Assembly: GCA_963804645.1 (NCBI GenBank) | Contig: CAWDRG010000009.1 | Location: 352,001 to 416,000, forward strand | DNA from: an uncultured Bacillota bacterium | GTDB taxonomy: Bacteria; Sysuimicrobiota; Sysuimicrobiia; Sysuimicrobiales; Segetimicrobiaceae | DNA: 64,000 bases | Reading direction: 5' to 3' | Part shown: positions 18,026 through 34,844 of the stretch, in pieces | Numbering within the stretch: the stretch's first letter is position 1 | Layout: the number at the start of each line of letters is the position of its first letter | Made by a program: the position numbers and the translations under genes | Notes under the pieces: generated by a model | Told to the model about the DNA's origin: nothing | Database searches by the model: none | The model's input: only the letters and a program-made list of their open reading frames with translations

Positions 18026-20869
18026 GTGAGCATTGCCCAGCAGCTAGAACGCATCCCGCCCCAAAACCTCGAAGCGGAACAGGGCGTGCTGGGATCGATG
18101 CTGCTCGACCGCGACGCCATCGCCCGCGTTATCGAATCGCTGCGCGCGGAAGATTTCTATCGCGACGCCCACCGTGTGATTTACATGGCGATGACCGAAC
18201 TGTTCGAGCGCGGAGAGCCCGTGGATCTGATCACGGTTACAAACCGCCTCACCGTACAGGGCAAGATCGATGACATCGGCGGCGCCACATACCTTGCGTC
18301 GCTCCCGAACGTCGTCCCCACTGCCGCAAACGTGGACTTCTACGGCAGCATCGTGATGGAAAAATCCATGCTGCGCCAGCTGATCAGTGCCGGCACGCAC
18401 ATCGCCGCGCTTGGGTACGACGCCGCAGACGACGTCGCCGCCCTGATTGACCAGGCCGAAAAGATGGTGTTCGGCATCGCCGCCCGCCGGAATGTTCAAG
18501 ACTTCCAGGCGATCAAGGAGATCCTTAAGGAGAGCTTCGATAAGATCGACAAGCGCTATCAGGAAAAGGGCACCGTCACGGGGGTCGCGACCGGATTCAC
18601 CGACCTCGACATGCTTACCTCCGGTCTCCAAGACTCCGACATGGTGATCGTCGCAGCCCGGCCATCGGTCGGCAAGTGTTTGACCGCCGACGCCGAGATC
18701 CTCCTGGCGGACGGCAGCATCGTCACCATCGGCGAGATCTACCGGCGGCGGCAAGGACGGCTGATGACGCTCGGGAACGACTGGCGATTCCGGTTCACGG
18801 AACCGTCGGCGTTCGTGGACGACGGCCTGAAGCCCGCGTTCCGCGTCACCACCCGGCTCGGACGCCGGGTCGAGACGACGGCGAGCCATCCGTTTCTGAC
18901 GCTCGACGGCTGGCTGCCGCTTGCCGCGCTCCGCACCGGAGACCGCATTGCAGTGCCGCGCCGTCTCAGTGTATTCGGCAACAAACCCATGCGCGAGTGC
19001 GAGGTGAAGCTCCTCGCGTACTTCATCGGAGATGGCTCACTGACAGGCGGCAAGGCCGCATTCACGAACACAGATCCCACCATGCTGCGCGATTTCTCGG
19101 CAGCCGTGCGCGCGTTTGGCGGCGTGCGCTGCCGTCGTGAGCGTGATTGTAGTGGCCGGCGCGCGCCGACGCTCGCCGTCGCAGGGAATCCGATGTTCCG
19201 CCGACAGCAACGCCGCGAGTTCGCCGGGCAGCTTCGTGCGGCGCTGGGGACAGCCCGCGGTGCCCGGGCCAGCCTGGCGCGAGCGCTCGACGTCACCCCG
19301 GCGGCCGTGCTCGGCTGGTGTCGAGGCGAGCAGGTCCCGAAGGCACACCGGTTTGCGCAGTTGTGCGGGGTGGTCGGCGTACCACCCGACCGCCTCGCGC
19401 CGCACGGTTTTCCGCCTGTGAGCCGCAGCAGCCAGAACCCCGTCGTCCTCTGGCTGCAGGCCCTCGGACTCTGGGAAAAGAAGGCGGCGGAGAAGCGGCT
19501 GCCGGCGGCGGTCTTTACACTGCCGAAGGCGCAATCCGCCCTCTTTCTGAACCGGCTGTTCGCAACGGACGGATGGGCCGCGGCGAACGCAGTGACCCGT
19601 TTGGCGCACGTTGGATACGCGTCGAGCAGCGAACATCTCGTGCGGCAGATCCAACATCTGCTGCTTCGCTTTGGGATCGTCGCTTCCGTTCGGAGGCGCA
19701 GTGTCCGCTATCTTCGCGAACTACGCACAGCGTGGGAGCTGTGCATCACGGATCCCGCCTCGATTCGCACGTTTGCCGAGGAGATCGGGATCTTCCGCAA
19801 GGAGCGCAAACTACAGCAGGCGCTCACGGTCGTCGCCCGGCGGGGTCGTATCCCGAATCGCGACACCATCCCGCGAGCGGTATGGCGCACGATGGCTGAC
19901 GCGAAGGGCGCCGAGTCGTGGGCGTCGCTTGCACGGCGCGCTGGCTGGGCGAATACCGGAAACGTCCACGTCGGAGTACGCGCACCGTCGCGAGATCGCC
20001 TCTTGACGTTCGCAACAGCTCTCGCCCACGACGGCTTGCGGCAGCTCGCCCACAGCGACGTGTACTGGGACGAGATCGTGGCGATCGAACCGACGGGCGA
20101 GAAACAAGTCTATGATCTTACGATTCCGGAGACCCACAACTTTGTCGCCAACGACATCTGCGTACACAACACGACCTTTGCGCTCAACATCGCGCAGCAC
20201 GCCGCACTCACCCGCAAGATCCCGGTGGCGATCTTCAGCCTTGAGACGAGCAAGGAGCAGCTGGTCCAGCGCATCCTCTGCTCGGAAGCACAGGTGGACA
20301 ACAGCAAACTCCGCACCGGGTTCCTGGCGGACGAGGACTGGCGCAAACTGGCCCGCGCGATGGGAGGACTCAGCGAAGCCCCCATCTTCATCGATGATTC
20401 GGCGACGCTCTCCGTCATCGAGATGCGGGCAAAAGCCCGGAAGCTCAAGGCCGAGCATGGGCTCGGGCTGATCGTGATCGATTACATCCAGCTCATTCAA
20501 TCGTACCGGCGTACCGAGAACCGCACCCAGGAGCTCAGCGAGATCGCCCGCAACATCAAGTCGCTCGCCAAGGAGCTCGCTATTCCGATCATTGCGATCT
20601 CACAGCTCAGCCGCGCCGTCGAGGCGCTCGGGCAGAAGCGCCCGATGCTGAGCCACCTGCGCGAGAGCGGCGAGATCGAACAGGTGAGCGACCTCGTGCT
20701 GTTTCTCTATCGTGAGGATTACTACGATCAGGAGAAGGCGCACAAGGAGAACAAGGAAAATATCTGCGAGATCATCATCGCCAAGCACCGCAACGGTCCG
20801 ATCGGCACCGTGGAACTGTACTTCCACAAGGAGCACAGTCGGTTCGACAATCTGTCAAAACAACGATAA
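18026..20869 (+). CDS. dnaB: Replicative DNA helicase DnaB containing an intein
   Basis: PPQNLEAEQGVLG, AARPSVGK|TTFALNIA (Walker A split by intein), IVIDYIQL, ISQLSR, LRESGEIEQ, AKHRNGPIG. Confidence 0.97.
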   Translation: MSIAQQLERIPPQNLEAEQGVLGSMLLDRDAIARVIESLRAEDFYRDAHRVIYMAMTELFERGEPVDLITVTNRLTVQGKIDDIGGATYLASLPNVVPTAANVDFYGSIVMEKSMLRQLISAGTHIAALGYDAADDVAALIDQAEKMVFGIAARRNVQDFQAIKEILKESFDKIDKRYQEKGTVTGVATGFTDLDMLTSGLQDSDMVIVAARPSVGKCLTADAEILLADGSIVTIGEIYRRRQGRLMTLGNDWRFRFTEPSAFVDDGLKPAFRVTTRLGRRVETTASHPFLTLDGWLPLAALRTGDRIAVPRRLSVFGNKPMRECEVKLLAYFIGDGSLTGGKAAFTNTDPTMLRDFSAAVRAFGGVRCRRERDCSGRRAPTLAVAGNPMFRRQQRREFAGQLRAALGTARGARASLARALDVTPAAVLGWCRGEQVPKAHRFAQLCGVVGVPPDRLAPHGFPPVSRSSQNPVVLWLQALGLWEKKAAEKRLPAAVFTLPKAQSALFLNRLFATDGWAAANAVTRLAHVGYASSSEHLVRQIQHLLLRFGIVASVRRRSVRYLRELRTAWELCITDPASIRTFAEEIGIFRKERKLQQALTVVARRGRIPNRDTIPRAVWRTMADAKGAESWASLARRAGWANTGNVHVGVRAPSRDRLLTFATALAHDGLRQLAHSDVYWDEIVAIEPTGEKQVYDLTIPETHNFVANDICVHNTTFALNIAQHAALTRKIPVAIFSLETSKEQLVQRILCSEAQVDNSKLRTGFLADEDWRKLARAMGGLSEAPIFIDDSATLSVIEMRAKARKLKAEHGLGLIVIDYIQLIQSYRRTENRTQELSEIARNIKSLAKELAIPIIAISQLSRAVEALGQKRPMLSHLRESGEIEQVSDLVLFLYREDYYDQEKAHKENKENICEIIIAKHRNGPIGTVELYFHKEHSRFDNLSKQR
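18677..20170 (+). mobile_element. Intein (498 aa) with LAGLIDADG homing endonuclease in the DnaB P-loop
   Basis: Starts CLTADAE after GK; TASHPF block B; LLAYFIGDG and FLNRLFATDG; ends VYDLTIP..HNFVANDICVHN, +1 residue Thr. Confidence 0.95.
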
Positions 20870-20893
20870 CTACTGCGGCGGCGGAGTAGTAGT

Positions 20894-20957
20894 TGTAGGA
20901 TTCGATCCTATCTTGGCAATATCGAAGATATCTCGACATGGCAATTGTGAGGATATC
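20894..20957 (+). repeat. dnaB-proximal end type A, copy 1
   Basis: TGTAGGATTCGATCCTATCTTGGCAATATCGAAGATATCTCGACATGGCAATTGTGAGGATATC; homologous to 23130-23199 and 25132-25198. Confidence 0.85.
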
Positions 20958-21023
20958 GTGTGCCAGCGGGTGTTGATCCCAGCGAACGTATTGTGTCGCT
21001 ATCGCGCGCGCTGCGCTGTGGAT

Positions 21024-21053
21024 GGGCGGGCGGCCCGTACGGGCCGCCCGCCC
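21024..21053 (-). terminator. Perfect 30-bp palindrome downstream of the arylsulfatase
   Basis: GGGCGGGCGGCCCGT|ACGGGCCGCCCGCCC, 14 bp beyond the stop codon. Confidence 0.6.
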
Positions 21054-21067
21054 GGTTGACGCTTCGA

Positions 21068-22603
21068 CTACTGTCCGTGCTTTGCCATGGCTTCCTCGAT
21101 CTTCGCTTTCACCGCATCGAGGTTGAAGCTCGCGCCCTTCTGCGCCGGCGGGAACTCGATAGCCGTCATGGCCAGCTTCGCCACTCGCTGTTGGACGAAC
21201 ACGAAGCGCCAGAACTCGAATCTGAACCAGTCGAAGTATTGGTAGGATCCGAGATTTCCGTTCCCTTGTGGCCACGTCGTCTTCTCGAAGGGATCGAGGC
21301 GCAGGTTCACGAGCAGCGGCACGTCCGGGTGGTCCTTGGTACCAATCCAGCCGCCGGGCTGCACGATGAAAGTATATTTGAAGTCGTCGATCCGTACCGC
21401 GGCGAGGTTGCTCTCAGTAAAGTAGAAGATCTCGTTGCGGGCGGATGGCCCCTTGCCGGTGATCAGATCCATCTGATTGTAGCCGTCCAGATGCGTCTTG
21501 TACGTCGTTCCGCCGAGTTGTTTCCCCTTCTTGAGCTCATCGGCGATGTTCGGGTTGCCGGCCGCGGCCACGAAGGTCGCAAACCAATCCTGGCCCGAGA
21601 TGATGCCAGGCTCCACCACGCCGGCGGGGACCTTACCGGGCCAGCGAATCATCGCGGGACAACGGAACCCGCCTTCATAGCCCGTACCTTTGGCACCGTA
21701 AAACGGCGTCTGTCCGCCGTCGGGCCAGGTGAAGCTTTCCGTGCCGTTGTCGGTGGTGAACATGACGATGGTGTTGTCGTCCAGCTCGTTGTCTTTCAAG
21801 TACTGCATGAGCGCGCCGACGCTGTCGTCGAGCTGGGCCATGCCGGCTTCGTGAATGGTCCAGCCGTTCTTCGAATTCTGCAGGGCTTCGTACTTCGGCG
21901 ACAGATGGGTGACGATGTGCATGCGGGTCGGGTTGAACCAGAGGAAAAACGGTTTGCCGGCCGCCTTAGCCTTGTCGACGAACTTGAGGCTGGCCGCGAG
22001 AATTTCGTCGTCCACGGTCTCCATCCGCTTGGGATACAGCGTGCCGGCGTCCTCGATCTTCTGCTTGCCGACCTTGCCCCAGCGCGGCATCACCGTCGGG
22101 TCGTCCGTGTCCGTGGCCCACGAATGGACCATGTTGCGCGGGCCGACCGTGTTCAATAACTCCTGCGGATAGGCGGGGTGGGCGGGGTCCTCCATGGCGT
22201 CGAGGTGGTAGAGATAGCCGAAGAACTCGTCAAAGCCGTGGACCGTGGGCAGGTACTTATTCATGTCGCCCAAGTGGTTCTTCCCGAACTGCCCGGTCGC
22301 GTAGCCCATCTCTTTGAGGGCCGTCGCGATCGTCGGCGCAGAATCCGGCATCCCGACATCCGCCCCCGCCTGGCCGACGGTCGTGAGACCCGTGCGCATC
22401 GGGAGCTGGCCGGTGATGAACGCCGCCCGCCCCGCCGTGCAGCTTGCCTCCCCGTAGTAATCGGTGAACAGCATGCCTTCGCCGGCGAGCTTGTCGAGGT
22501 GCGGCGTCCGCCCGGCCATCATACCTCGATGGTACGCCCCGATATTCCAGATGCCGATGTCATCGGCCATGATCACGACGATGTTTGGTTGTTTTGTCGC
22601 CAA
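21068..22603 (-). CDS. Arylsulfatase
   Basis: PNIVVIMADDIG, SCTAGRAAFITG, GKNHLG, TTDNG, KGT.YEGGFR; TTG start after GGAGG. Confidence 0.92.
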   Translation of the reverse strand: MATKQPNIVVIMADDIGIWNIGAYHRGMMAGRTPHLDKLAGEGMLFTDYYGEASCTAGRAAFITGQLPMRTGLTTVGQAGADVGMPDSAPTIATALKEMGYATGQFGKNHLGDMNKYLPTVHGFDEFFGYLYHLDAMEDPAHPAYPQELLNTVGPRNMVHSWATDTDDPTVMPRWGKVGKQKIEDAGTLYPKRMETVDDEILAASLKFVDKAKAAGKPFFLWFNPTRMHIVTHLSPKYEALQNSKNGWTIHEAGMAQLDDSVGALMQYLKDNELDDNTIVMFTTDNGTESFTWPDGGQTPFYGAKGTGYEGGFRCPAMIRWPGKVPAGVVEPGIISGQDWFATFVAAAGNPNIADELKKGKQLGGTTYKTHLDGYNQMDLITGKGPSARNEIFYFTESNLAAVRIDDFKYTFIVQPGGWIGTKDHPDVPLLVNLRLDPFEKTTWPQGNGNLGSYQYFDWFRFEFWRFVFVQQRVAKLAMTAIEFPPAQKGASFNLDAVKAKIEEAMAKHGQ

Positions 22604-23020
22604 CTTCGACCTCCGCAGTCAATTTTGAACCCTCTCCGAGTGAGCGTGATCCCTCGTCGACTGACGGGCACCCTGCTCAGAGCCGTCCGGAACTGCAGTC
22701 ACCCCCTACGGATTCCGTCGTCGGTACGCTAGATCCGTGTGGCTCATGACATGGGCCGTCACGCCACTCGGACGGCCCAACCTGACCGAAAGACACTTGA
22801 AGATCGCTCGAGGGGGAATGACAACACCAAGAAGCACGTGGTGTTGCGTATTTGCATTCCCGATCTGTGCCCGTCGGAGGGGAGCCGGAATTTCCGAGAG
22901 TCTACGGGGAGATTAATGCGGCGGCCGTAGTCCGCCGGACCGAGCGAAGATGCCGGACTGTATGCGCCGATCGCCCTCCGCCAGTTCCCCCCAAGTCTAG
23001 CACTTGGGAAAGCGAATGGC

Positions 23021-23121
23021 CCATAGGAATTGCTAAGATATCCCGTCTCGAAGGTGCTCTGACGGGCGACTTTTGCCAAGATCTCCCCGGCCGGATTGCT
23101 AAGATAGGATCAAATCCTACA
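23021..23121 (+). repeat. dnaB-distal end type B, copy 1
   Basis: TTGCYAAGAT sites at 23030, 23073, 23096; terminus GATCAAATCCTACA; 84/101 ungapped identity (counted by eye) to 25022-25122. Confidence 0.88.
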
Positions 23122-23515
23122 CGACGACTTGTAGGATGCGATCCTATCTTGACAAAGTCGAAGATATCTCGGTAATGCGTTAGCAATTGCCAAGATATCC
23201 ACGCAGACCTCAATGCGGATCTACGGAATGGGGAGGACGAGAAGAATCGGAAGCGAGGACGGACATAACGAAGAAGAAGGGGGAGCGACCGCCGACATCC
23301 AACGAAATGACGGCCCGGCACCTGGACGTACTCCAGGCGAATCTACCACGGCCGAGAACGGGCGAGTCCCCCGATGAGTGAAGGAAGTGGCTCGATTCCT
23401 ATCGAACGCGAGGCGAACAGAGACAAGACGACTTAAATTAGGCCCCAGCGCCACGAGACTGCCTGATCGGCCCTCACATCGCAGCGCCAGCACGCACTAT
23501 CCGGAGGATCGCGCG

Positions 23516-24814
23516 ATGGATATCACCGTCCAGAACGGCTTGAGCGTTCCCGTGTACAGCTCCGTGGGCCACAGCGACGGCTGGCAGGTGGCCGACCTCC
23601 TGGGGAACACGGCGGGCTTGGTCACGGGCGTTACCGCCTTCGCAGAGGTCTCGGGGTTGGTTACGGTCATCAACGCGATCCAATTGGGAAACGCCGGCTT
23701 GGCCGCGGCGCAGCGGATCCCCGGCATTCTTCAGAAGTTCTGCTTCACCGTGCAGCCGGGCATGAGCCAATCGGCACGCGAGGCCATCGGGATCGCCGAT
23801 CAGTTCCGCGCGAGCTACTGGAACGATCTGTTCGGCGGCAAGAGCCTAGGCGTGTTCATGTCTAATACCGAACACGCCGTGCTGGTCAACGCCAGCACCA
23901 TCACGCCCCGCACGTACCGCGTCGAGGCCAAGGGGGCGCGGGAGGGCGGGTTTCTTCACCGCTGGGGCGAGCCTGGCTACTACTCCACGATGAATACGTC
24001 GGCACCGCCGTCCGTCGTCGCGTTCGGAGGCAAGTATCACATGTTCTTCCGCGACGGCAGCGGCAACGGCATCTTGCACGCCACCTCCGACGAGGGGATC
24101 TACTGGAAGGGCGCGGACCCATTCTATATCGGCGTCAACACCAGCTCCGCGCCGGCACCGGTGGTGTACAACAACCAGGTCTACATCTTCTTCCGCGACG
24201 GAGCGGGCAACGGCATCCTGTATGTCGTCTCCAAGGACGGCTACACGTTTACGGCACCGCAGAACTGGTACATCGGTCTGAATTGTGACGCGCAACCCTC
24301 GGTGACCGTCCACAACGGAGCGCTCCACCTGGTCGCGCGCGACCACGGGGGGGCCGGCGTCATGTACGCGTATCAAACCGCCACGGGATGGCAGCACGGG
24401 TACACGGGAGAGAACACGTCCGCGCCGCCGGCGGTCATCTCGTTCGCGAATCGCCTGCATGTCTTCTATAAGGACGGCGGCGCCAACAACGGCGTATTGC
24501 ACATGGTGTCCGACGACGGCGTCCACTACCGGCGCGCCGACGTCTACCACCCCGACATCACGACAAGCGCGGGACCCTGCCCGTTAGTCTATCGCGGAAA
24601 CCTGCTGCTGCTGTTTCGCGACGGGACGGGAAACGGCGTGCTCTACAGTATCTCCGCCGACGGCACCCAGTTTACCAACCCGCCCGATTGGTACCTGGGA
24701 CTGAACATCGACAACGAACCGTCGGCCGCCGTGCTGGGCGACCACCTCTGCATTCTGGGAAGGGACCCGGGCGGCAACGGGGTAATGTCGCAGGTCCCGG
24801 ACCTCAGTCCTTAG
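23516..24814 (+). CDS. Hypothetical protein: N-terminal domain plus six ~48-aa beta-propeller-like repeats
   Basis: ATG after GGAGG; repeats NTSAPPxxVxFxxxxHxFFRDGxGNGILxxxSxDG; the ORF track starts upstream at 23378. Confidence 0.8.
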   Translation: MDITVQNGLSVPVYSSVGHSDGWQVADLLGNTAGLVTGVTAFAEVSGLVTVINAIQLGNAGLAAAQRIPGILQKFCFTVQPGMSQSAREAIGIADQFRASYWNDLFGGKSLGVFMSNTEHAVLVNASTITPRTYRVEAKGAREGGFLHRWGEPGYYSTMNTSAPPSVVAFGGKYHMFFRDGSGNGILHATSDEGIYWKGADPFYIGVNTSSAPAPVVYNNQVYIFFRDGAGNGILYVVSKDGYTFTAPQNWYIGLNCDAQPSVTVHNGALHLVARDHGGAGVMYAYQTATGWQHGYTGENTSAPPAVISFANRLHVFYKDGGANNGVLHMVSDDGVHYRRADVYHPDITTSAGPCPLVYRGNLLLLFRDGTGNGVLYSISADGTQFTNPPDWYLGLNIDNEPSAAVLGDHLCILGRDPGGNGVMSQVPDLSP

Positions 24815-24841
24815 TCCGAGGGGGATCGGATGTGTTCAACA

Positions 24842-24876
24842 CGCCCCGCGCAGACGCTGTTCGTCTGCGCGGGGCG
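24842..24876 (+). terminator. Hairpin after the cassette-2 gene
   Basis: CGCCCCGCGCAGACG-CTGTT-CGTCTGCGCGGGGCG (15-bp stem). Confidence 0.6.
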
Positions 24877-25021
24877 CTGGTTGATCACCACGTCCTACTT
24901 ACAAAAAGAGCTAGACTATCGGCATCCGGAAGAGAGGCTATATCAGCGCGCGCTGCAAACCTGCGGATAACCACGTAATCCCTCGACTTTTATAGGAGCC
25001 CATTATCATGGGCGCGACGAT

Positions 25022-25122
25022 CCGTAGGAATTGCTAAGATATCGCCCCTCCAACGGTCTTTGCCAGGCTACTTTTGCTAAGATATCCCCGGCCAAATTGC
25101 TAAGATAAGATCAAATCCTACA
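25022..25122 (+). repeat. End type B, copy 2
   Basis: TTGCTAAGATA sites at 25031, 25074, 25097 (same 43/23 spacing as copy 1). Confidence 0.88.
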
Positions 25123-25131
25123 CTACATGTA

Positions 25132-25213
25132 CGCAGGATCGATCCGATCTTGGCAATTTCAAAGATATCTCGGCAACGTGTTGGCAGTAGCCGAGATACG
25201 ATCAAATCCTGCA
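25132..25213. repeat. 82-bp cargo-less mini-element (end A joined directly to an end-B terminus)
   Basis: CGCAGGATCGATCCGATCTTGGCAAT...TAGCCGAGATACGATCAAATCCTGCA. Confidence 0.65.
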
Positions 25214-25348
25214 ACACCCCCCACAGCAGACCGGTTGCTGTGTGTGAACAGCAGATCCTAATAGGTCTTTCCCCCCGTCACTTTGATGCCGGACGCCGAC
25301 ATCGCCATCGACGGCGGGCAGACACCCAGCGTGCGGAGCGGACCGAGA

Positions 25349-27379
25349 ATGGCAGATAAGCACGTGCATCTCACCCAGCGCTTCGCGATAAAGACGACGC
25401 CGGTCTTGCAGGCGCTGTTGATCGTCGCCGCGGGAGTGTGGGTCTTCTATCCTGCTATCCATGGCCAGTGGCTCTGGGATGATGACGTCCTCATTACAAA
25501 CAATCTACTGATCCACGATCCGGCGGGACTCTGGAAGACCTGGTTCGCCCCGACCATGAGTTTGATCGACTACTTCCCGATCACGGTCAGCGTGGAATGG
25601 CTGGCGTGGCGTGCGTGGGGACTGAACACGTTTGGCTACCATCTCACGAGTATCGTGCTGCACCTCACCAGCGCGCTGCTGGTGTGGCGTCTGTTGAGCA
25701 AACTGGGAATCCGGCTGGCGTGGCTGGGCGGACTCCTGTTTGCCATTCACCCGGTGATGGTGGAATCGGTGGCCTGGATCGCAGAACTCAAGAACACCCT
25801 CTCCCTACCTCCATTCCTGATCGCGATGTGCGCGTGGATCGACTACGAGGAACACGGGAAATGGACACACTACTGGCTGGCTCTCGGCCTGTTTCTCGTC
25901 GCGATGCTCTGCAAGACCACGATGGTGATGTTCCCGTTCGTGATCCTGCTCTATGCCTGGTGGAAGCGAGGGCGGATACGGGTCCGGGATCTGACAGGGA
26001 GCGCGCCCTTCTTCGTTGTGTCGCTCGTGCTGGGGCTCACCACGATGTGGTTCTTGCATCATGCGATGGCTCCCCAGGCCGTCCAACTCGGCGGCTTTCT
26101 CTCTCGCGTGGCATGCGCGGGTCTGTCGCTCGCGTTTTATTTCTCCAAGTCCGTGCTGCCCATTGGACTACTCCCGACGTATCCTCAATGGGCGGTCGGT
26201 CGCCCATCGCTGGTACAGTTTCTGCCGTGGCCGATTCTCGGTGGCGTGCTCTACCTATGCTGGGCCAACCGCGCCAGCTGGGGCCGGCATGCATTGCTCG
26301 GGCTCGGCTTCTTTCTCATCAACCTGGCACCTTTTGTGGGATTCACCGCGGCTGCGTACATGGACTTTACCTGGGTCATGGACCACACCCTGTACATTCC
26401 CTTGATTGGCTTAATTGGACTGGCGACGGCGGGGCTGGGCTGGCTCGACGATCGGGTGCCCGCGTCTACCCGGCCCTACGGCATCGGGATGGTCACGGTG
26501 GTGCTGGTCCTCTTGGCCGTCAGCAGCCGTGCGTACGCCGGACTCTACGTCAACCCAGAGACGCTGTGGACGTATACCGTTGAACGCAACTCCGACGCGT
26601 GGCTGGCTTACGATAACCTCGGCTATACGCTCACCAAGGCCGGAAAGTTTACGGAAGCAATCGGAGAATTTGAGCAGGCCCTCCGCATTAATCCCAATTA
26701 TGCCTCCACGCATGACGACCTCGGCACCGCCTTGTTCCGCGTCGGCCGGCTTCGGGAAGCGCAGCGTGAAGTCGAACAGGCCTTGCGGATCGACCCTGAT
26801 TCCGCCACCGCCCACAACAACCTGGCGACCATTCTGGTGCACCTCGGACGAATCCCAGAAGCCATTCAACAATTTCAGGCCGCCGTGCGGATCAATCCCA
26901 ATGATGCCGAGGCGCACAACGGCATGGGTACTGCCCTGGTCCAGAACGGTCAGTATGCGGATGCGGTGGAAGAATTCGAAGCGGCCTTGCAAATCAATCC
27001 TGATTTTTCCGAGGTCCACGACAACCTGGGGGCCATGCTCGCCCACTTCGGACAAATCCCCGAGGCCATTGAACAATTTCAGGCCGCCGTGCGGATCAAT
27101 CCCAATGATGCCGAGGCGCACTACGACATGGGGTTCGCCTTGACCCAGACCGGCCGGGATGAGGACGCCTTGGAAGAATTCGAAGCGGCCGTGCGGATCA
27201 ATCCCGATTTTGCCGAGGCTCACAACAATCTGGGGGTCATTCTGGCACGCCGCGGACGTATCCCAGAGGCCATTCAGCAATTTCAGGCCGCTGTGCAGAT
27301 CAATCCCAATTACACTGAGGCGCGACGTAATCTGACCCGCGTGCTCAATCGCGAGAAGACCTCTCCGCCCAGGCGCTAA
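25349..27379 (+). CDS. TMTC-like membrane protein (GT-C-type N-terminus) with C-terminal TPR repeats
   Basis: WLWDDDVLIT.N, YFPIT, GYHLTSIVLH, FAIHPVMVESVAWIAELKN, ETLW, about eight TPRs (AHNNLG...A.RINP). Confidence 0.88.
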   Translation: MADKHVHLTQRFAIKTTPVLQALLIVAAGVWVFYPAIHGQWLWDDDVLITNNLLIHDPAGLWKTWFAPTMSLIDYFPITVSVEWLAWRAWGLNTFGYHLTSIVLHLTSALLVWRLLSKLGIRLAWLGGLLFAIHPVMVESVAWIAELKNTLSLPPFLIAMCAWIDYEEHGKWTHYWLALGLFLVAMLCKTTMVMFPFVILLYAWWKRGRIRVRDLTGSAPFFVVSLVLGLTTMWFLHHAMAPQAVQLGGFLSRVACAGLSLAFYFSKSVLPIGLLPTYPQWAVGRPSLVQFLPWPILGGVLYLCWANRASWGRHALLGLGFFLINLAPFVGFTAAAYMDFTWVMDHTLYIPLIGLIGLATAGLGWLDDRVPASTRPYGIGMVTVVLVLLAVSSRAYAGLYVNPETLWTYTVERNSDAWLAYDNLGYTLTKAGKFTEAIGEFEQALRINPNYASTHDDLGTALFRVGRLREAQREVEQALRIDPDSATAHNNLATILVHLGRIPEAIQQFQAAVRINPNDAEAHNGMGTALVQNGQYADAVEEFEAALQINPDFSEVHDNLGAMLAHFGQIPEAIEQFQAAVRINPNDAEAHYDMGFALTQTGRDEDALEEFEAAVRINPDFAEAHNNLGVILARRGRIPEAIQQFQAAVQINPNYTEARRNLTRVLNREKTSPPRR

Positions 27380-27473
27380 GGCCTCTCAGATGTGGAGATA
27401 CGCCCGCTGAAACGGTGGGGCCAGAGGCCCGACAAGCGAGTGAATTCCCAGATCACTGAGGCCAGGCGACGCC

Positions 27474-27500
27474 CCGTAGGAATCGTTGAGATAGCCCCCG
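27474..27500 (+). repeat. Truncated, degenerate end type B (inner part only)
   Basis: CCGTAGGAATCGTTGAGATAGCCCC vs CCGTAGGAATTGCTAAGATATCGCC. Confidence 0.55.
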
Positions 27501-27717
27501 TGCCCCGCGAAGTTGCGTGGCGCGTCACAACGCGCAAGCAAGGGCAGAATGCCCGAATTCGCGCGAGAAAAGTGGGCCAAAGTATGAGTGATCGTTGAGG
27601 TCATTTGGCCCGCGTTGGCACCGCCGGGTGTGCGGGCTTTCTCGCTCCGCTCGGGGCGCTGGCCCGTTGAGCACGTCCGAAGCTCGATTCCACTGATAGA
27701 TGGGGGCGTGGGACACC

Positions 27718-27795
27718 CCGAAGGAATTGCTAGGATAGGCCCCGTTCGAAGACACCGCGTCGGACGCTCTTGCCAAGTTACGATCAGATCCTACA
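27718..27795 (+). repeat. End type B, degenerate copy lacking one 23-bp unit
   Basis: CCGAAGGAATTGCTAGGATA (site 27727), TTGCCAAGTTA (27770, 43-bp spacing kept), then CGATCAGATCCTACA. Confidence 0.75.
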
Positions 27796-27797
27796 GC

Positions 27798-27845
27798 TAT
27801 AGTAGCAATACCGAAACAATGTCATGGCAACCGCCAACATATCCT
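27798..27845 (+). repeat. Highly decayed end type A remnant
   Basis: TATAGTAGCAATACCGAA...CATGGCAACCGCCAACATATC aligns to TATCTTGGCAATATCGAA...CATGGCAATTGTGAGGATATC; TGTAGG terminus missing. Confidence 0.45.
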
Positions 27846-27999
27846 GAGCAAACAGGACCTAGCGCGAGCGACCAGAAAGACGGACGGTCACCGCGCCGCG
27901 GCACAATCATCGCAATCGTCTTCGCCGTCCGACGACAGCGCGCGTCGACGACAATGCGTGTCGCCCCCCGAACTAGACGCATAGGCGGCCGCTCGCCCC

Positions 28000-30000
28000 T
28001 TAAACCGACGATTCGCGTGGATCGACCGATGTGGTGTGCACCGGCAGGTCTTTGCGCCACCGCCGCTGGAACACCTGCCGACCGTCAAGGTCCGCTTCCA
28101 CGTCGACATGGATCACAAACGGCGTGGCCAACAGATTGGCTCGGATCGACACGCTGCCCGCGGAGCGGCGGTGCTGCACCAGGACCTCCGCGCGCAGGTT
28201 CGCCGTCCACGGACGATCGGCATCGGTGGTCACGATGCCGTGGTAATCCAGTCCCGTAATCGTGTGCGCGTCGAACCCCTGCTCGTAGTGGAACGTGGCT
28301 TCGTAGCTGACCGTCTTGCCGATAAGATCTCGGTGCACGACATGCGTTTCATCCGACCGCACGCCCGCGGAGAGACGCAGGAGACCGTCAGCATCGGCGG
28401 CCGGAAGCGACGGCGCGGGCAGCCCGGCGCCCCGGTCCGAGATGATCGGCAACTCGACCAGCGACGCCCTGGCGCCACCATAGTGAATCTGGAGTTCGTA
28501 CGGTTCGGGCGTGGGCCAGATCTCGGGGAAATCGGCGCCCGCGAGACACAGGCGCAAGCGGTGGCCCGCCGGTACCACCCGGCAGACCGGTGAGAGCGCC
28601 AGTGAGATCTGGCGGACTTCGTCGCGTGCCAGCGGGCGACGTGGATCGTGGGCGCTCTGCTGGCTGACGTTGGTCCATTCACGTGCGATGACGATGGAGC
28701 CGCCCCGGGGATCGACCTCGCAGAGCTTTACCGCAAGGGAGGGTGCTGGTGTGGTCGCAGACAGTACGACGTGGGCGATTGGTGTGCCACCCAGCTCGAG
28801 GTCCGAGGCGAGCGGCGGAGTCGTGTAGGAGAGTGAGCGATGGTCGTCCGCACTTTGATCGCTCGGCAATGGGATGCCGGCGATGCCGCCGTGCAGGGCC
28901 ACCGATTCGATGCCGACGCGCGAGTCATATACCCAGGTGTCCGACCCCGCGCGCTGCTCGTCCTCCCCGCGCGACAGTCGACCATCCGGGCCAACACGGA
29001 ACGCGACGCGCTCGGCGCGCGCGAGCGGCCAGTCAGCTTCGTACCGCCAGTAACCAGCGCCGAGGACATACACCGTCACCGGGGGCTCGCGATCCACGCC
29101 ATTCTCTATTCCCTTGAGCCAGCGATCCCACCACCGGTCCATTTCACGGAGCGCGCCGATCGGGTGCACGGGAGAGAAATCCGGGAATGCATGCTTCCAC
29201 GGTCCCATCAGGATGCGTTTCGGTCCGTGAAGGGCTTCGTAGACCATGAAGCTGGGTCCCGCGTACTTGTCGTGCCAACCCGAGATAAGAAACGTCGGGA
29301 CCGCAATGCGCTCGTACGGAACGCGGCGGCGAAGCCAGAAGTCGGGATCCGGAGGCTCGCCGTGCCATGAGAGGAGCCACGGCATGTTGGCCTCGAGCCG
29401 TTCGCGCCAAATCTCCAGCCACCGGTCGCCGTCCTCTTGGATGAGGGGCGGGGCCAGGTTCGTGGCCACCAGGCGGGGGGCCCAACTTACCTCGTTGTAC
29501 ATCAGCCCCTGGCATCCGTGGGGACGCAGGTACCAGTCGTAGTTGTCGAAGGTCCCGTGGATCGGGACGATCGCCTTCAAGTGCTGCGGGCGCGTCGAGG
29601 CGATGCTAAGGGACGTGCATCCACCGTAGGAAGTGCCCCACAAGCCGACGGCCCCGGTACACCAGGGCTGCACTGCGATCCACTCCACGACGGCATGTCC
29701 ATCCGCCCGCTCCTGAGGATCAAACGGAAATGGGTTCGTGCCTTCGGAGCAGCCCACGCCGCGAAAGTCCACGTCCAGGGTGGCGTAACCGCGGCTCGCG
29801 AAGTGCTGGTGCGCCGCCGCGCGTATCGCGGCACTTCGCGTGCCGTCCTTATGGTACGGCGTAAAGGAGAACACCGCAGGAAACGGCCCCCCGGTATCGG
29901 GCAGCAGCAGATTCGCCGCCAGCTGCACACCATCTGGCATGGGGATCCGGATGTTGCGCGCCGCCTTCAGACCCGAAGCCGCGGTGTTTGACGATGGCAT
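28000..30000 (-). CDS. CocE/NonD family hydrolase
   Basis: IPMPDGVQLAA, TPYHK, DFRGVGCSEG, GLWGTSYGG, GWHD, MGPWKH. Confidence 0.9.
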   Translation of the reverse strand: MPSSNTAASGLKAARNIRIPMPDGVQLAANLLLPDTGGPFPAVFSFTPYHKDGTRSAAIRAAAHQHFASRGYATLDVDFRGVGCSEGTNPFPFDPQERADGHAVVEWIAVQPWCTGAVGLWGTSYGGCTSLSIASTRPQHLKAIVPIHGTFDNYDWYLRPHGCQGLMYNEVSWAPRLVATNLAPPLIQEDGDRWLEIWRERLEANMPWLLSWHGEPPDPDFWLRRRVPYERIAVPTFLISGWHDKYAGPSFMVYEALHGPKRILMGPWKHAFPDFSPVHPIGALREMDRWWDRWLKGIENGVDREPPVTVYVLGAGYWRYEADWPLARAERVAFRVGPDGRLSRGEDEQRAGSDTWVYDSRVGIESVALHGGIAGIPLPSDQSADDHRSLSYTTPPLASDLELGGTPIAHVVLSATTPAPSLAVKLCEVDPRGGSIVIAREWTNVSQQSAHDPRRPLARDEVRQISLALSPVCRVVPAGHRLRLCLAGADFPEIWPTPEPYELQIHYGGARASLVELPIISDRGAGLPAPSLPAADADGLLRLSAGVRSDETHVVHRDLIGKTVSYEATFHYEQGFDAHTITGLDYHGIVTTDADRPWTANLRAEVLVQHRRSAGSVSIRANLLATPFVIHVDVEADLDGRQVFQRRWRKDLPVHTTSVDPRESSV

Positions 30001-30255
30001 CTCTCGCCCCCTACATACCACGTGATCGCGTAGGTGCTGGTCTCGAGACGCCTGGGCATCGGGTCACCGGTGGCCCGCCGACGACTCAAGACCCTCGTCG
30101 CAATCACCGAACCGCTCGTCCAGGAATCCCATCCCGTCGGAGCCACCGACGTCGGGTGCGCCGCGCGTCGATGGCCGACGCACGGATCCGTCCAATGGGG
30201 ACCGTAGAGAGAACCGACGTACTCGCCGAATCCGCGCAGAGAATGGGTACGTCCA

Positions 30256-31203
30256 TCAATCGAACGCAAACACCCGCTTCCAATCACGCTTCATGTCAAC
30301 GACGGTCCAGCCGTGCGCGTGGGCTTCGTCGAGCGCCTTGTTGAGGGTTCCGAGGACGGCGCGCTCGTACGCGTATTCGCGCTCGGCGTCGGTGTGGTGA
30401 ATGAGTCCCATGAAGCGGGCGCCGGCACCTGCCGCCGTCCACTGCAACATCGGCAGATCGCCGTCGCTGTTGCCGAAAGCAAGAATCGGGCGGCGCCCGA
30501 TATACCGATAGATCGCGACCGGTTTGCCTGAGCCGTCGTCTACGAAGTTGATCTTGGCCTCTCGCATGAGCACGGGCTTGCCGTCCGGCCCCATCATAAA
30601 CTGGGTGACGCAGGACGAGCCGACCACTTGCTCGGGGGGAATGCCGTAGACGCGCTCGGCGAACGCGTACATGAACTCGATGCCGCCGCCCGACACGATG
30701 AAAGTCTTGAACCCATTGGCACGTAGATAGGTGAGCAGTTCAATCATCGGTTGGTAGACCACTGCACTGTACTCGCACTTGAATCTCAGATCACGCGCAC
30801 TGGCGAACCAATCTTTGACGATGCGCTGGAACTCCTCCGTGGTCATGCCGGCATGGGTGGCCCCGACCACATCAACGAGCCCGCGCTCACCCGACTGCGC
30901 GAGCGTCTTCAGATCCCCTTCGAGCGCCGCCTTGAATGGTTGCGTCTCCTTCCACTCGGGGTGCGCAGAGGCGAGCGCCTTCAGCCGGTCGAGCGCAAAC
31001 GCGAACTGGACCGGCACCGGCTGCTCGCACCAGAGCGTGCCGTCGTTGTCGAACGTGGCGATGCGTTCCTCGGGCCGCATGAAGTCCGGTCCGCCCTCAT
31101 GGGTCACCTTGGCGACATACTCGATGATGGCCTGTTTGCTCGCGCCATTGTTCCATGACGGAAGCGGATCGGACTGCGCCGGCGAACCGGCATTAGGACT
31201 CAT
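30256..31203 (-). CDS. HAD family hydrolase
   Basis: RIATFDNDGTLWCEQP, IVSGGG, GKPV, AFGNSDGD. Confidence 0.9.
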   Translation of the reverse strand: MSPNAGSPAQSDPLPSWNNGASKQAIIEYVAKVTHEGGPDFMRPEERIATFDNDGTLWCEQPVPVQFAFALDRLKALASAHPEWKETQPFKAALEGDLKTLAQSGERGLVDVVGATHAGMTTEEFQRIVKDWFASARDLRFKCEYSAVVYQPMIELLTYLRANGFKTFIVSGGGIEFMYAFAERVYGIPPEQVVGSSCVTQFMMGPDGKPVLMREAKINFVDDGSGKPVAIYRYIGRRPILAFGNSDGDLPMLQWTAAGAGARFMGLIHHTDAEREYAYERAVLGTLNKALDEAHAHGWTVVDMKRDWKRVFAFD

Positions 31204-31260
31204 CGCATCCCCAGGTGACGTGATGACCACCCCGCATAGTATGCCCCGCGCCCGCTGCAG

Positions 31261-31623
31261 TCACTCGCGCCAACCCTCTCGGTGTCGGAAGAAACCCGTG
31301 TTGCCGATCCTAAATACGTGCTCTTCCTGATAGGCTGGACACTGTTCCGCCTGGGCGGCGGAAATGCTCAACTGGACCGCGTGCTCGGTGATCCGCGCGA
31401 CCAACGCCGCCGACGCCATCCGGGGCGATGACCACAGACGATGTCGAAACCCGACGCCGTGGAAGATGTCCCGCTCGGGATCGCCGAGCGCGTGTGTCAC
31501 GTGGCCGATCGAGGTGCCGTCCGCCGCGAAGACCGGCATCCCGGTGGCAATCATCCGCCACGAAACGACGTCGTCGCTGTTGTCGCTGTTTGCAGGAGGC
31601 TCGTAGGAATCCGTCATATCCAC
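31261..31623 (-). CDS. Hypothetical protein, PRC-barrel/DUF2171-like
   Basis: SWRMIATGMPVFAADGTSIGHV...GD..DIFHG. Confidence 0.6.
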   Translation of the reverse strand: MDMTDSYEPPANSDNSDDVVSWRMIATGMPVFAADGTSIGHVTHALGDPERDIFHGVGFRHRLWSSPRMASAALVARITEHAVQLSISAAQAEQCPAYQEEHVFRIGNTGFFRHREGWRE

Positions 31624-31691
31624 CGCTTCGCACGCGGCGTGTCATCGCCCTTCCACACCAGGCGCCCCGACTCCGGTGGGACCCGCGTCCC

Positions 31692-32429
31692 CTACCGCAG
31701 CGTGCTTGCAAATAACCCCGTCAGTTTCTCGAATGCACGCTCCGCCTGTGGTCGGTTGTACACAGGGCTGTCCGGCACTGTCCAACCGTGACGCGCACCC
31801 TCGTAGACCTCGCTCTCATACCGCCCGCCCCACGCTGCGAGCGCGCCGTCGAACTTCTTGATCGCCTCTTCAGGCATGCTGCGATCCTCAACCGCGTGGC
31901 CGAAATAGAGCCGGGCGCGGATGCGCGGCAACGCAAGATGCGGGCTGTCCGGGCTGTCGGTATAGAGCCCGCCGCCGTGAAAGGACGCGGCCGCGGTGAC
32001 CCTCCCGGCGCGCACCGCCGCAGTGCGCATCGCCATGGCACCAGCAAAGCAGTACCCGACGACGCCCATCGGACCGGCGCCAACGGCACCGTCAGCGGCG
32101 AGGAAGTCGACGTAGTTCGCCACGTCGTGTTCGACCGCGTCGGGCGTCAGCGGGGCTCTCAACTCGGCCATCCGCTTCGCCCGCTGGTCTTCGCCCGCGC
32201 CCGCCGGCAGTTCAGCCACCGGCGGCCGCCCGGATCGGTAAAAGATGTTGGGCATCAACACCGTGTACCCTTGGGCGGCGAGGCGCTGCGCCATGTCACG
32301 ATGAGACTGGCGAATGCCTCGGATGTCCGTCAAATGAATCACGCCGGGCTGGAGACGGCCGTCGTCGGCACGGTACACGAACCCGTCGACAACGCCGTCG
32401 GAGGTCCGAATCTCGATCGCTTCTTCCAT
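31692..32429 (-). CDS. Dienelactone hydrolase family protein
   Basis: GYTVLMPN, GVVGYCFAG, AASFHGG, YEGARHGW. Confidence 0.9.
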   Translation of the reverse strand: MEEAIEIRTSDGVVDGFVYRADDGRLQPGVIHLTDIRGIRQSHRDMAQRLAAQGYTVLMPNIFYRSGRPPVAELPAGAGEDQRAKRMAELRAPLTPDAVEHDVANYVDFLAADGAVGAGPMGVVGYCFAGAMAMRTAAVRAGRVTAAASFHGGGLYTDSPDSPHLALPRIRARLYFGHAVEDRSMPEEAIKKFDGALAAWGGRYESEVYEGARHGWTVPDSPVYNRPQAERAFEKLTGLFASTLR

Positions 32430-32777
32430 GCTCGATTCCTCCCATTGATACGTCTCAACACCCGCCCGCGCCAGCAGTCAGTGGGCTCGTGGCAGATCGC
32501 CGATCGGCTCGCTGCCGCCGATCTCCTGTGAACTAGGTTCCGCAGTCGCGCGCATCGTCCTGCCGCAGTCGTGAGTCGTTACCCGGTCTGTACGAGGACC
32601 CCGCCAGCAAACCCGACCGCGCGATCGGTGACGGCCATAGTTGTCCGCAACCCCGCGCGCTTCAAGGAGGCAGAAACGTGGAGGCGAAATGGCCAGATGG
32701 ACCGATACGGGGTCATGCAGCGGCAGCTCCTGCACCCGCTGGTGTGCCACGGCAAAGGCGACGGGAGGGACACGCAC

Positions 32778-33401
32778 ATGTCGACCGGCGTAGACGGCGC
32801 GCGCATGGAGCAGCTCCGCGCGGGCGTGCGCGAGAGCTTGCCTGAACTCCAACACATCAAAGACACGGATCTGCGAGAGAAGGTCGTCGACGCGTGGGCG
32901 CTGGCGCTTTCGCAAACGACGTTCAACCGCATCGAGGATGTGCCTCCGGAAGGGAACCCCGGTGATTGGGTGCTGCGGCGCGGAACGCAGACGGACCACA
33001 TCCGTGCCGTCGCCAGGATGGCCGTGGCATTGGCCGACGAGCTCGAATCCATATTCGGTTCGATCGGCGTGGATCGGGACATCCTGATGGCTGCCGGCCT
33101 CGTCCATGACGTCGGCAAACCGTTCGAGATGGACCCGTCGAATCAACGGCGGTGGCGCGACAACCCGGCGGCTTCCGGACATCCGGCGCTGCGGCATCCC
33201 GCGTACGGCGCCCATATTGCGCTCACCGTCGGGCTTCCCGAGGCGGTGGTTCATTGCGCGGGGTGTCATTCGCTGAACGCCGAGGGCCAGTTCGTCTCGG
33301 CCGGGTTGGAAACCATGCTCGTGCAGTACGCGGACGCGTCCTCCTGGAGAGTCCTCCAATGCGCCGGTCTGGTCACCAGGCCCGGCAAGGACGCCCGGTA
33401 G
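32778..33401 (+). CDS. HD domain protein
   Basis: DHIRAV, AGLVHDVGK, RHPAYG, VQYAD; ATG after GGGAGG. Confidence 0.8.
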   Translation: MSTGVDGARMEQLRAGVRESLPELQHIKDTDLREKVVDAWALALSQTTFNRIEDVPPEGNPGDWVLRRGTQTDHIRAVARMAVALADELESIFGSIGVDRDILMAAGLVHDVGKPFEMDPSNQRRWRDNPAASGHPALRHPAYGAHIALTVGLPEAVVHCAGCHSLNAEGQFVSAGLETMLVQYADASSWRVLQCAGLVTRPGKDAR

Positions 33402-34003
33402 TGACCCACGTGACGGACAACCCGATTCAGGAGATCACGGAGGACCGGGAGCGGGCGCGCGCCGCGGCCGATCCCTTAGCGGACGTCTGCTATCTCGTCA
33501 CGGTGGCGTCGCCGGAGCGCGCGGAGGCGCGCGCGCTCACACTGCGCGACATCACCGACGAGGGTTTTGGCATCTTGATCAACCGCACCAGCCCCAAGTG
33601 GAAGCAGCTCTCCGCGACAGACACCGCCACCCTGCTGATTCACTGGCCCACGGTGCGCCGGCAGTACCGGATCTGGGGCGGCATCGCCTCGATGGACGCC
33701 GCACGCGTCAACGCCTACTGGGCGCGCAAGAACTTGGGATCCAAGCTGCTCGAGTATTACTACACGACCTTTGCACCGCAGAGCCATCGCATCGCGTCGC
33801 GCGCTGAGTTCCTCGCAGGGATCGAGGAGCTGCGGCGCCGTTATCCGGATCGAGAGGCGGTCCCGTTGCCGGACAGCCTCGCGGGCATCTACGTGGCGCC
33901 CCGCGAGATAGAGGTGTGGCACGGCTCGGAAGAGCGCCTGCACGATCGGCGTGTGTTTCAACGATCCGGCGCCGGGTGGGTAGGGCACACGCTCGTTCCG
34001 TGA
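33401..34003 (+). CDS. Pyridoxamine 5'-phosphate oxidase family protein
   Basis: ARALTLR, SPKWKQL, RQYRIWG, IEVWHG..RLHDR. Confidence 0.8.
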   Translation: MTHVTDNPIQEITEDRERARAAADPLADVCYLVTVASPERAEARALTLRDITDEGFGILINRTSPKWKQLSATDTATLLIHWPTVRRQYRIWGGIASMDAARVNAYWARKNLGSKLLEYYYTTFAPQSHRIASRAEFLAGIEELRRRYPDREAVPLPDSLAGIYVAPREIEVWHGSEERLHDRRVFQRSGAGWVGHTLVP

Positions 34004-34060
34004 CCCCGCTCTCCAGGTGCGGCGCGCGGAAGTACGGCCTGCCTCCACCGTCGACGGACG

Positions 34061-34843
34061 CTAATGCGCCGTCCATCCCCCATCAATCGGGAGTGCCGCC
34101 CCGGTCAGGGCCGCAGCGGCGTCTGAACACAAGTACAGCGCGAGCGCCGCGACCTCGGACGGCTCCAGCAGACGCTTCACGGCCTGGCTGGTCCGCATGA
34201 CCTGCTCGACGCCCTCCGACTCGGGGATTCCCGGCAGCCGCGACTGCTCGGCGATCCGACGCTCGATCAGCGGCGTCCGGATGTACCCGGGGCAGATCGC
34301 GTTGACCGTGACGCCGTACTGCGCCACCTCCCACGCCGCGGCCTTCGTGAATCCCACGACCCCGTGCTTCGCCGCCACGTACGCGGATCTGAACGGCGAC
34401 GCCACGAGGCCGTGTGCCGACGAGATGTTGATGACACGCCCCCACCGTCCGCGAATCATGTGGGGCAGGGCGTACTTCGTGCAGAGAAACGTCCCCGTCA
34501 GCAACACCCCGAGCAGGTGCTGCCAGCGCTCCTCGGGGAAGTCGACGACCGGCGCGACGTGCTGCAGGCCGGCGTTGTTCACGAGGATGTCGAACTGCCC
34601 GAATTCCCGTACCACCGCGTCGACCATGGCGCGCACGGATTTCGAGTCTGCGACGTCCACCTCGGCAAACATCGCGCGGCCCCCGCGGCGGCCGATCTCC
34701 TCGACCGCCACCTTGCCGGCGTCCCGATTGACGTCGGCGACGCACACGCCGACACCCGCCTCGGCGAGCGCGGCGGCCATCGCCAGACCCAGCCCGGATG
34801 CCGCGCCGGTGACGGCGGCCGTCCTGCCCCGCAGTGTCGCCAC
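34061..34843 (-). CDS. 3-hydroxybutyrate dehydrogenase-like SDR
   Basis: TGAASGLG, NNAGLQHVAP, SSAHGLVAS, YVAAKHG. Confidence 0.88.
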   Translation of the reverse strand: MATLRGRTAAVTGAASGLGLAMAAALAEAGVGVCVADVNRDAGKVAVEEIGRRGGRAMFAEVDVADSKSVRAMVDAVVREFGQFDILVNNAGLQHVAPVVDFPEERWQHLLGVLLTGTFLCTKYALPHMIRGRWGRVINISSAHGLVASPFRSAYVAAKHGVVGFTKAAAWEVAQYGVTVNAICPGYIRTPLIERRIAEQSRLPGIPESEGVEQVMRTSQAVKRLLEPSEVAALALYLCSDAAAALTGAALPIDGGWTAH

Positions 34844-34844
34844 C

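Follow-up and report, generated by a model that had tools for sequence, protein, structure and literature searches.

The 64,000-nt stretch of DNA analysed here (the window; contig CAWDRG010000009.1, positions 352,001 to 416,000) belongs to the 5.3-Mb, 22-contig genome of an uncultured peat or soil bacterium, which we refer to as G000. At 18026..20869 on the plus strand it holds dnaB, the gene for the replicative helicase, and shortly behind the stop codon begins a tandem row of small gene cassettes with inverted, repeat-bearing ends, which is the subject of this report. The dnaB open reading frame matches the Pfam families of the DnaB N-terminal domain (4.9e-34) and DnaB_C (6.7e-100) as well as Intein_splicing and LAGLIDADG_3, is the only copy in G000 according to tblastn, and is preceded directly on its 5' side by rplI. 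The gene is intein-bearing; the intein, at approximately 18701-20170, has a weak HTH_31 match besides its LAGLIDADG homing-endonuclease domain. The dnaB matches of many relatives show a second break, at query position ~369 of 20300-20893, which suggests that their genes possess another intein site.

The 3' flank of dnaB is the landing site of the row. Between the stop codon and the first terminus lies a gap (20870..20893) of which the last 8 nt are GTAGTAGT; it is followed by L1 (20894..20963, plus strand), the dnaB-facing end of the first unit, in which a TGTAGGAT terminus leads into close site copies, the innermost of them flipped. The unit as a whole (E1, 20894..23121) measures 2228 bp, has inverted ends and is non-autonomous, with no transposition gene inside. 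Its far end, R1 (23020..23121, plus strand), carries direct sites at 23030, 23073 and 23096, then ATCCTACA, and is scored at 90 bits by the model. Positions 20894-20920 and 23095-23121 form a 27-nt inverted repeat with 93% complementarity. The terminus at 20894 is no chance match: a 14-mer terminus pattern with at most 3 mismatches has 9 matches in the window, compared with 3.23 expected, none of 100 shuffles reaches 9, and all six matches with at most 2 mismatches fall within 20894-27795. The first-pass annotation, which drew attention to this site, had placed the TAA at 20867-20869 and the first TGT at 20894 with 24 nt between them, and these coordinates are borne out by the sequence. It had also claimed that no fragment of the dnaB 3' end is duplicated further on, and we found no exact repeat of 11 nt or more of 20780-20893 in 20894-40000 on either strand; the close packing of sites that it described for the dnaB-facing end was likewise seen by eye, with the sites lying within ~65-80 nt.

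The terminus at 20894 is the start of a tandem row consisting of E1, E2, M3 and E3', followed by a decayed left end, L4. An 8-bp spacer (23122..23129, CGACGACT) separates R1 from unit E2 (23130..25122, 1993 bp), which is composed of left end L2 (23130-23200), one gene, and right end R2 (25021-25122, sites at 25031, 25074 and 25097). After a further spacer of 9 bp (25123..25131, CTACATGTA) comes M3 (25132..25213), an empty mini-element of 82 bp in which a left-type end is fused to a right-type terminus without any cargo; alternatively, M3 is the left end of the next unit. M3 is missing from one low-depth contig of run X3. The older unit E3' (25214..27795) encodes a membrane protein and has an extra site copy at 27467-27500 and a degenerate far end, R4, at 27716-27795. 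A 242-bp stretch of this unit (27461-27702), which sits between two direct copies of the site motif in its right arm, is represented by 30 nt in contigs of 3 peat runs, a difference that reads as a strain-level insertion or deletion. L4 (27797..27858, plus strand) is the relic of a further left end whose terminal 14 nt are missing. It aligns locally to the inner part of L1 with a score of 38, compared with 15.4 +/- 3.0 for shuffles, none of 500 of which reaches 38. Because this relic stands directly past 27795, the row continues into older, decayed units, and the S15 peptidase gene at 28000..30021 on the minus strand (Pfam Peptidase_S15 and PepX_C), a stretch that is not kept behind dnaB in relatives, is probable cargo of the next unit, which has decayed. 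Contigs from four peat runs contained no joint removing exactly one unit and no circle junction, although at low coverage and with contigs only they are uninformative on activity.

Inverted TGTAGGAT...ATCCTACA termini bound every unit, and behind each come several copies of one 13-bp site. The terminus itself is the 8-bp TGTAGGAT, of the TG...CA type, and is directly abutted by the first of several 12-13-bp site copies. In the right ends R1 and R2, three direct copies of the 13-nt motif TTGCYAAGATATC are spaced by 43 and 23 nt over ~95 nt, the last copy adjoining the ATCCTACA terminus, while the left ends show by eye the terminus, two close site copies and one flipped copy. The same motif thus serves terminus-adjacent and subterminal positions. 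With at most 2 mismatches TTGCYAAGATATC has 19 matches in G000, and 9 of these, including 3/3 exact ones, lie within a 2.1-kb stretch of the row. In this arrangement of sites, the ends are built like those of DDE transposons of the Tn7, Mu or Tn402 type. L1 and L2 are 89% identical over 63 aligned nt and R1 and R2 are 86% identical, with R4 showing 74-78% identity to both; the ends are therefore best preserved beside dnaB and become worse with distance. A single-strand mechanism (HUH or attC-like) was also considered and dropped, because the terminal hairpin of the G000 ends (TAGGAT-3 nt-ATCCTA) is not retained in the ends of relatives.

The cassettes each carry a single ordinary accessory gene that comes with a promoter and a terminator of its own. 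The cargo module of E1 (21024..22707, minus strand) contains a sulfatase coding sequence at 21068..22603 (Pfam Sulfatase, 5.2e-51) together with its own upstream region and terminator hairpin, and extends from this hairpin to 104 nt upstream of the start. A paralog without ends is present at G000:C19:224447-226128 (89.5% nucleotide and 93.7% amino acid identity), and the homology between the two ends at 21024 and 22707. The contig of the paralog, G000:C19, is rich in rve-type transposase matches. The E2 gene (23378..24814, plus strand) encodes a secreted, beta-propeller/BNR-like protein of 478 aa, whose BNR_2 match is sub-threshold, and has a homolog without ends in G070 (81% nucleotide identity). 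That homolog consists of two overlapping pieces in different frames (L028/L029, G070:C9:31361-32762) and may be frameshifted in the assembly. The E3' gene (25283..27379, plus strand) encodes a TPR and PMT_2-like (glycosyltransferase-like) membrane protein. Since the E1 and E2 genes occur elsewhere without ends, the cassettes carry lineage-typical single-gene modules.

Apart from a role in mobility, the repeats could also be binding-site arrays for a host DNA-binding protein, regulatory or structural, that lie between genes by chance. Conservation of the site copies at fixed spacing would agree with such a role, as would the failure to find a mobility enzyme. Yet oppositely oriented repeat pairs bracket unrelated single genes, their placement relative to gene starts is inconsistent, with R1 upstream of its gene and R2 downstream of its own, an empty 82-bp left-plus-right unit exists, and the same genes are found elsewhere without repeats. 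Furthermore, the locus has no Rfam family match and no relevant result in a tRNA scan, and we regard a host-protein array as highly improbable.

Profile hidden Markov models of both ends, run over the whole of G000, recovered the row only (E 1e-17 to 1e-32), the remainder of the genome giving two matches with E above 6 (E up to 10). Two isolated matches to the terminus pattern elsewhere in G000 lie inside coding sequence and were rejected. The exact pattern recurs in 1 of the 93 other genomes of the order, G079, and a sequence-only covariance model of the right end detected diverged copies in 8/94 genomes, all from one family (f1); the genome sets for class and phylum are the same genomes as that of the order (94 or 80). 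A second model, built from ten right-end copies of relatives and searched in 23 family genomes, gave matches in 11 of them (E <=0.05); ten of these matches were strong (4e-17 or better) and were distributed over seven genomes with 1-3 each. In the alignment of the ten copies, three related motif copies at 23/43 spacing are conserved and the stretches between them are variable, with a mean column identity of 78%. Ends from three other genera score 4e-17 or better with this second model whereas those of G000 reach E 0.015-0.034 only, and because of this weak score we distinguish two subfamilies of ends, with type A comprising G000 plus single copies in G079 and G071, and type B comprising the other genomes. 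Exact-pattern scans of larger collections returned 3 matches among genomes and 1 among metagenomes, all of them chance matches in coding sequence without a second site, and pattern scans of viral contigs and blastn searches of plasmids for the ends returned nothing.

A dnaB 3' match was obtained in 20/23 family genomes. The flank was read directly in nine genomes (G000, G060, G063, G065, G066, G067, G068, G071 and G079), the others being covered through genome-wide model searches. Of the ten strong type-B right ends, three are found 1105-1536 nt past the dnaB stop, oriented as in G000, namely on G065:C55 (1113 nt), G066:C26 (1105 nt) and G063:C148 (1536 nt); together with G000, four genomes therefore have a far end 1.1-2.2 kb behind the stop codon in one orientation. 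G063 has a second unit, set off from the first by a 7-bp spacer. The cargo beside dnaB is a sulfatase in G000, RibD_C in G063, a creatininase in G065 and a Phd plus PIN toxin-antitoxin pair in G066, and the unit interiors of G065 and G066 have no BLAST similarity to each other. A weak left-type match stands right after the dnaB stop in G068 (E 0.042) and another, recognised by eye, 4 nt after the stop in G067. No element is present behind dnaB in G060 and G071, the dnaB contig of G079 ends 4 nt past the stop codon, and contigs of three peat runs stop at 20848-20853. The interval between dnaB and msrB in genomes of the same genus ranges from 3 to 16 kb and is occupied by differing sets of ordinary metabolic genes. 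As the ends of G000 form a separate subfamily, the dnaB site has been colonised by two subfamilies within one genus. The 3' flank of dnaB is a recurrent landing site for non-autonomous cassettes.

This distribution could in principle go back to one ancient insertion behind dnaB in the family ancestor, with the ends and dnaB now acting only as homology arms for gene replacement. Confinement of the ends to one family of a small phylum points in that direction, as do the low copy number per genome, the outcome of the family-wide enzyme searches, the badly decayed state of the dnaB-adjacent left ends in relatives, and the fact that the entire dnaB-msrB stretch varies among species and holds ordinary genes. 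A single fossil insertion is difficult to reconcile, however, with two strongly diverged end subfamilies at the same site within one genus, both of which also occur at other loci in other genera. In addition, the non-coding ends are ~78% identical across genera with the conservation focused on the site copies, which needs selection or recent spread, and the young, well-matched ends of E1 and E2 stand beside older ones. We consider a fossil origin of the whole pattern improbable.

Instead, the row probably represents mobile, trans-dependent cassettes accumulating at a dnaB landing site. This reading is favoured by the end anatomy, the confinement of the G000 ends to the row, the return of such ends behind dnaB with different cargo in relatives, the presence of two subfamilies there, the loss of end identity away from dnaB, and the variability shown by contigs of G079 and of three peat runs that stop close to the dnaB stop codon. 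The terminus at 20894 would be the dnaB-proximal terminus of the first cassette in a tandem row of small non-autonomous mobile cassettes. A transposase would bind the repeated sites and a target selector would read the dnaB end or its immediate flank, both being supplied in trans by an autonomous element outside any assembly searched. Cassettes would be inserted in one orientation just behind the dnaB stop codon, each new one displacing earlier ones outward from dnaB; as newcomers displace older cassettes, the ends would be best preserved beside dnaB and deteriorate further out. The flanks may later have been reshuffled by homologous recombination between conserved ends. As to the type of enzyme, it is tempting to favour a DDE transposase of the Tn7-like kind because of the TG...CA termini, the one shared motif, the asymmetric ends, the mini-element and the orientation-specific place behind an essential gene, and to this more specific proposal we give slightly less than an even chance.

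Several observations weigh against the model of trans-dependent cassettes guided to dnaB. The offset is not constant, since the relic ends in relatives appear to begin 2-8 nt past the stop (by eye, with one weak model match). Right ends are also found away from dnaB, at G079:C273 (two), G079:C189, G063:C58, G063:C16, G067:C105, G068:C6, G068:C205, G066:C69 and G071:C28, several of them only 140-320 nt from a contig end, so that their neighbours are cut off; no contig was found that continues from the cut end of G079:C189. The interiors at G063:C58 and G063:C16 are 94% identical over 138 nt and have different flanks, which indicates either a duplication or two strains in one bin; this pair, like the occurrence of the E1 and E2 genes elsewhere without ends, counts in favour of copies that move or duplicate. 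The junctions, in contrast, weigh against the model. Abutting ends are separated by 8, 9, 7 and 8 bp and in one case by 31 bp (5 junctions), the spacers differ between junctions, unlike what simple repeated insertion at one fixed point predicts, and no target-site duplication of any length surrounds E1 or E2, the outer flanks being GTAGTAGT and CGACGACT for E1 and CGACGACT and CTACATGTA for E2, with no common duplication. PMC11014353 gives a 5-bp target duplication for Tn7-like elements. The GTAGTAGT 8-mer found before L1 recurs in G079:C189 as the spacer between two abutting ends. A perfect period-3 7-mer is present in the 12 nt outside the terminus at 8/23 termini, whereas random 12-mers drawn at these loci contain one in 4.7% of cases (binomial P ~6e-6); as two spacers enter the count from either side, this corresponds to 6/21 independent flanks. 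The triplets vary, with (GTA)n, (CGA)n, (GCG)n and (TCA)n all represented, and such flanks lie at 20882-20893 and 23122-23129 in the window, at L021:2979-2986, and also at L019, L020 and L017. This enrichment fits none of the readings well.

The same junctions can be read as the work of a tyrosine recombinase that tolerates unlike crossover regions in the manner of Tn916 or CTnDOT, the units then being integrase-less relics or satellites. The recombinases of Tn916 and CTnDOT tolerate heterologous crossover regions. In such a scheme, the 14-nt inverted termini would act as core-type sites and the 13-bp motifs as arm-type sites, with the 7-9-bp spacer as the crossover ('coupling') region and rows arising by integration into an att site beside dnaB. 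Consistent with this, abutting ends have a symmetric arm-spacer-arm layout with a spacer of 7-9 bp at 4/5 junctions, and a unit's two flanks differ from one another, which is also true of coupling sequences. In four genomes, belonging to three genera, GTAGTAG(T) occurs both left and right of ends, as a preferred core would, and a GTAGTAG-like sequence is native behind dnaB in the element-free G060 and in G063; G000 also has 11 Phage_integrase matches elsewhere. On the other hand, identity of the terminus-adjacent and subterminal motifs is a transposase pattern rather than one of separate core and arm motifs, conservation extends to the TG...CA termini, the dnaB end has no direct repeat, and G000 holds no cognate element with these ends. 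No integrase is in or beside any unit, the sole fragment (G066:C69) abutting a tRNA 3' end and looking like part of a separate island. We therefore judge a tyrosine recombinase unlikely, albeit a serious competitor for the enzyme.

Searches for the machinery itself likewise count against the trans-dependent cassette model. Neither in the units nor close to them is there a transposase, ATPase or selector gene, and no open reading frame of a unit matches a transposition or recombination family. G000 has neither a TniQ nor a Mu-transpos_C match, and Mu-transpos_C (PF09299), TniQ (PF06527) and TnsA_N (PF08722) were above the cut-off in 0/23 family genomes, 14 control genomes being equally silent. 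An autonomous parent with matching ends was found neither in G000 and the 94 phylum genomes nor in the genome, metagenome, viral and plasmid collections as searched. TniQ gave one sub-threshold match of 17.3 bits in G069, and the single weak TnsA_N match is the Res subunit of a type III restriction enzyme. A type III restriction-modification pair, with a 1018-aa Res subunit and an 872-aa methylase, is encoded on G067:C28 (L030:6076-11743). Matches to PF05621 (TnsC/TniB) in 5 genomes are generic AAA+ proteins of 800-970 aa, a family that all 14 control genomes match too. G000 has 18 rve, 11 Phage_integrase and 4 Resolvase matches, none of them in the window and 11/11 of the Phage_integrase matches on other contigs. 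An insertion sequence of 1.42 kb was rejected as a source because its ends are unrelated to those of the cassettes; it is present in five copies with 99.7-99.9% identity (G000:C9:313873-315298, twice on C19, and on C6 and C13). The 543-aa protein encoded next to the end in G067:C105 was set aside, being a secreted repeat protein of which G000 has no homolog. So was the integrase fragment of G066:C69, which abuts a tRNA 3' end: the locus (L020:5400-6750) holds a frameshifted tyrosine-integrase gene ~1.4 kb inside a right end and looks like a separate decayed island. An ISNCY fragment lies outside an end in G068:C205.

Altogether, the proposals of the first-pass annotation fared unevenly. It had suggested the dnaB 3' end as an attachment site, and the repeated use of this site in one orientation in G000, G063, G065 and G066 supports the idea; the fixed ~24-bp offset at which the ends were expected to recur is not conserved, relic ends in relatives appearing to start closer to the stop. 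It had named copies at unrelated loci, with no relative having an insertion at the offset, as evidence to the contrary, and copies at non-dnaB loci do exist, yet three relatives carry dnaB-adjacent ends. Of its proposal of transposon-type ends read by a TniQ/TnsD-type or other selector, the ends with their compact side to dnaB hold up, whereas the TniQ/TnsD-type selector does not find support, TniQ, TnsA and Mu-transpos_C being absent at the cut-off from all family genomes in searches that had no positive control. A tniQ/tnsD-bearing element, which it had recommended looking for, did not turn up among the 23 family genomes at the TniQ cut-off, at which the control genomes were silent too.

Four known systems come closest to the row: Tn7-like elements, transposase-less cassettes, chromosomal integron arrays and tandem islands that lack an integrase. 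With Tn7-like elements at attTn7, downstream of glmS, and at other 'safe-site' genes, the row shares TGT...ACA termini, arrays of one repeated site, a compact end toward the target gene and a spread one away from it, an orientation-specific position a few to ~25 nt past the stop codon of a conserved, essential gene, and the occurrence of several elements in a row. It differs in that no tnsA, tnsB, tnsC or tniQ/tnsD was found in the units, G000 or the 23 family genomes (the controls being silent for the TnsA, TnsB and TniQ families), in having 7-9-bp spacers and no 5-bp duplication, and in the size of the units, ~2 kb with a single cargo gene. End anatomy and placement are thus those of Tn7-like elements, and the machinery and the 5-bp duplication are not in evidence. 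Mobile insertion cassettes (MICs) and miniature inverted-repeat transposable elements (MITEs) derive from insertion sequences, lack a transposase and may or may not carry a passenger gene. They have in common with the row the transposon ends around a passenger gene or around nothing, as in the 82-bp unit, the lack of a transposase and the dependence on functions in trans, but here the parent element is absent from the assemblies searched, and the few cassettes are piled up at one chromosomal site instead of being dispersed.

Chromosomal integron arrays resemble the row as successions of mostly single-gene, unrelated cassettes (including a toxin-antitoxin pair in G066) whose content varies between close species and whose proximal units are best preserved. 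In contrast to them, no intI lies beside the row (no Phage_integrase match in the window) and there are no attC-type sites, the cassettes have inverted TGT/ACA ends, and their genes stand in both orientations with their own promoters. Accretion of cis-mobilizable elements (CIMEs), with coupling as in Tn916 and CTnDOT, offers a further parallel in its enzyme-less tandem units behind a conserved gene, abutting inverted arms, short regular spacer and unlike flanks; the row departs from it in lacking a direct repeat of the target gene end and an associated integrase and in using one motif at terminal and subterminal sites. A further proposal is that of a working, host-maintained cassette-capture platform, integron-like in effect and run by an enzyme kind not so far linked to such ends. 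Gene modules with promoter and terminator would be swapped at one site, and the triplet-repeat spacers would be the footprint of the enzyme's chemistry. A new kind of enzyme is invoked there because the Tn7, Mu and TniQ families were not found and no integrase is adjacent. We attach little probability to this platform.

A term search for 'dnaB' gave no occurrence in the main text of four surveys, PMC8649781, PMC10293859, PMC11014353 and the preprint 10.1101/2025.07.27.667033, or in the accessible parts of the supplements of PMC8649781 and PMC10293859. In the literature searched, no paper joined 'Tn7-like', 'attachment site' and 'dnaB', and 'downstream of dnaB' led to unrelated papers only. Transposon-type non-autonomous cassettes at this landing site are thus without earlier description in the literature searched.

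Programmable insertion tools are based on site-specific transposons that insert at 'safe' places behind essential genes, and the list of natural landing sites is still growing. If the autonomous partner of the cassettes is found, it would add a family of ends and a target selector, both new, from an uncultured phylum about which little is known; if no such partner exists, the arrays would be a cassette-exchange system of a novel kind. Either way, the dnaB locus explains a region that is variable between close species and the assembly breaks that occur there.

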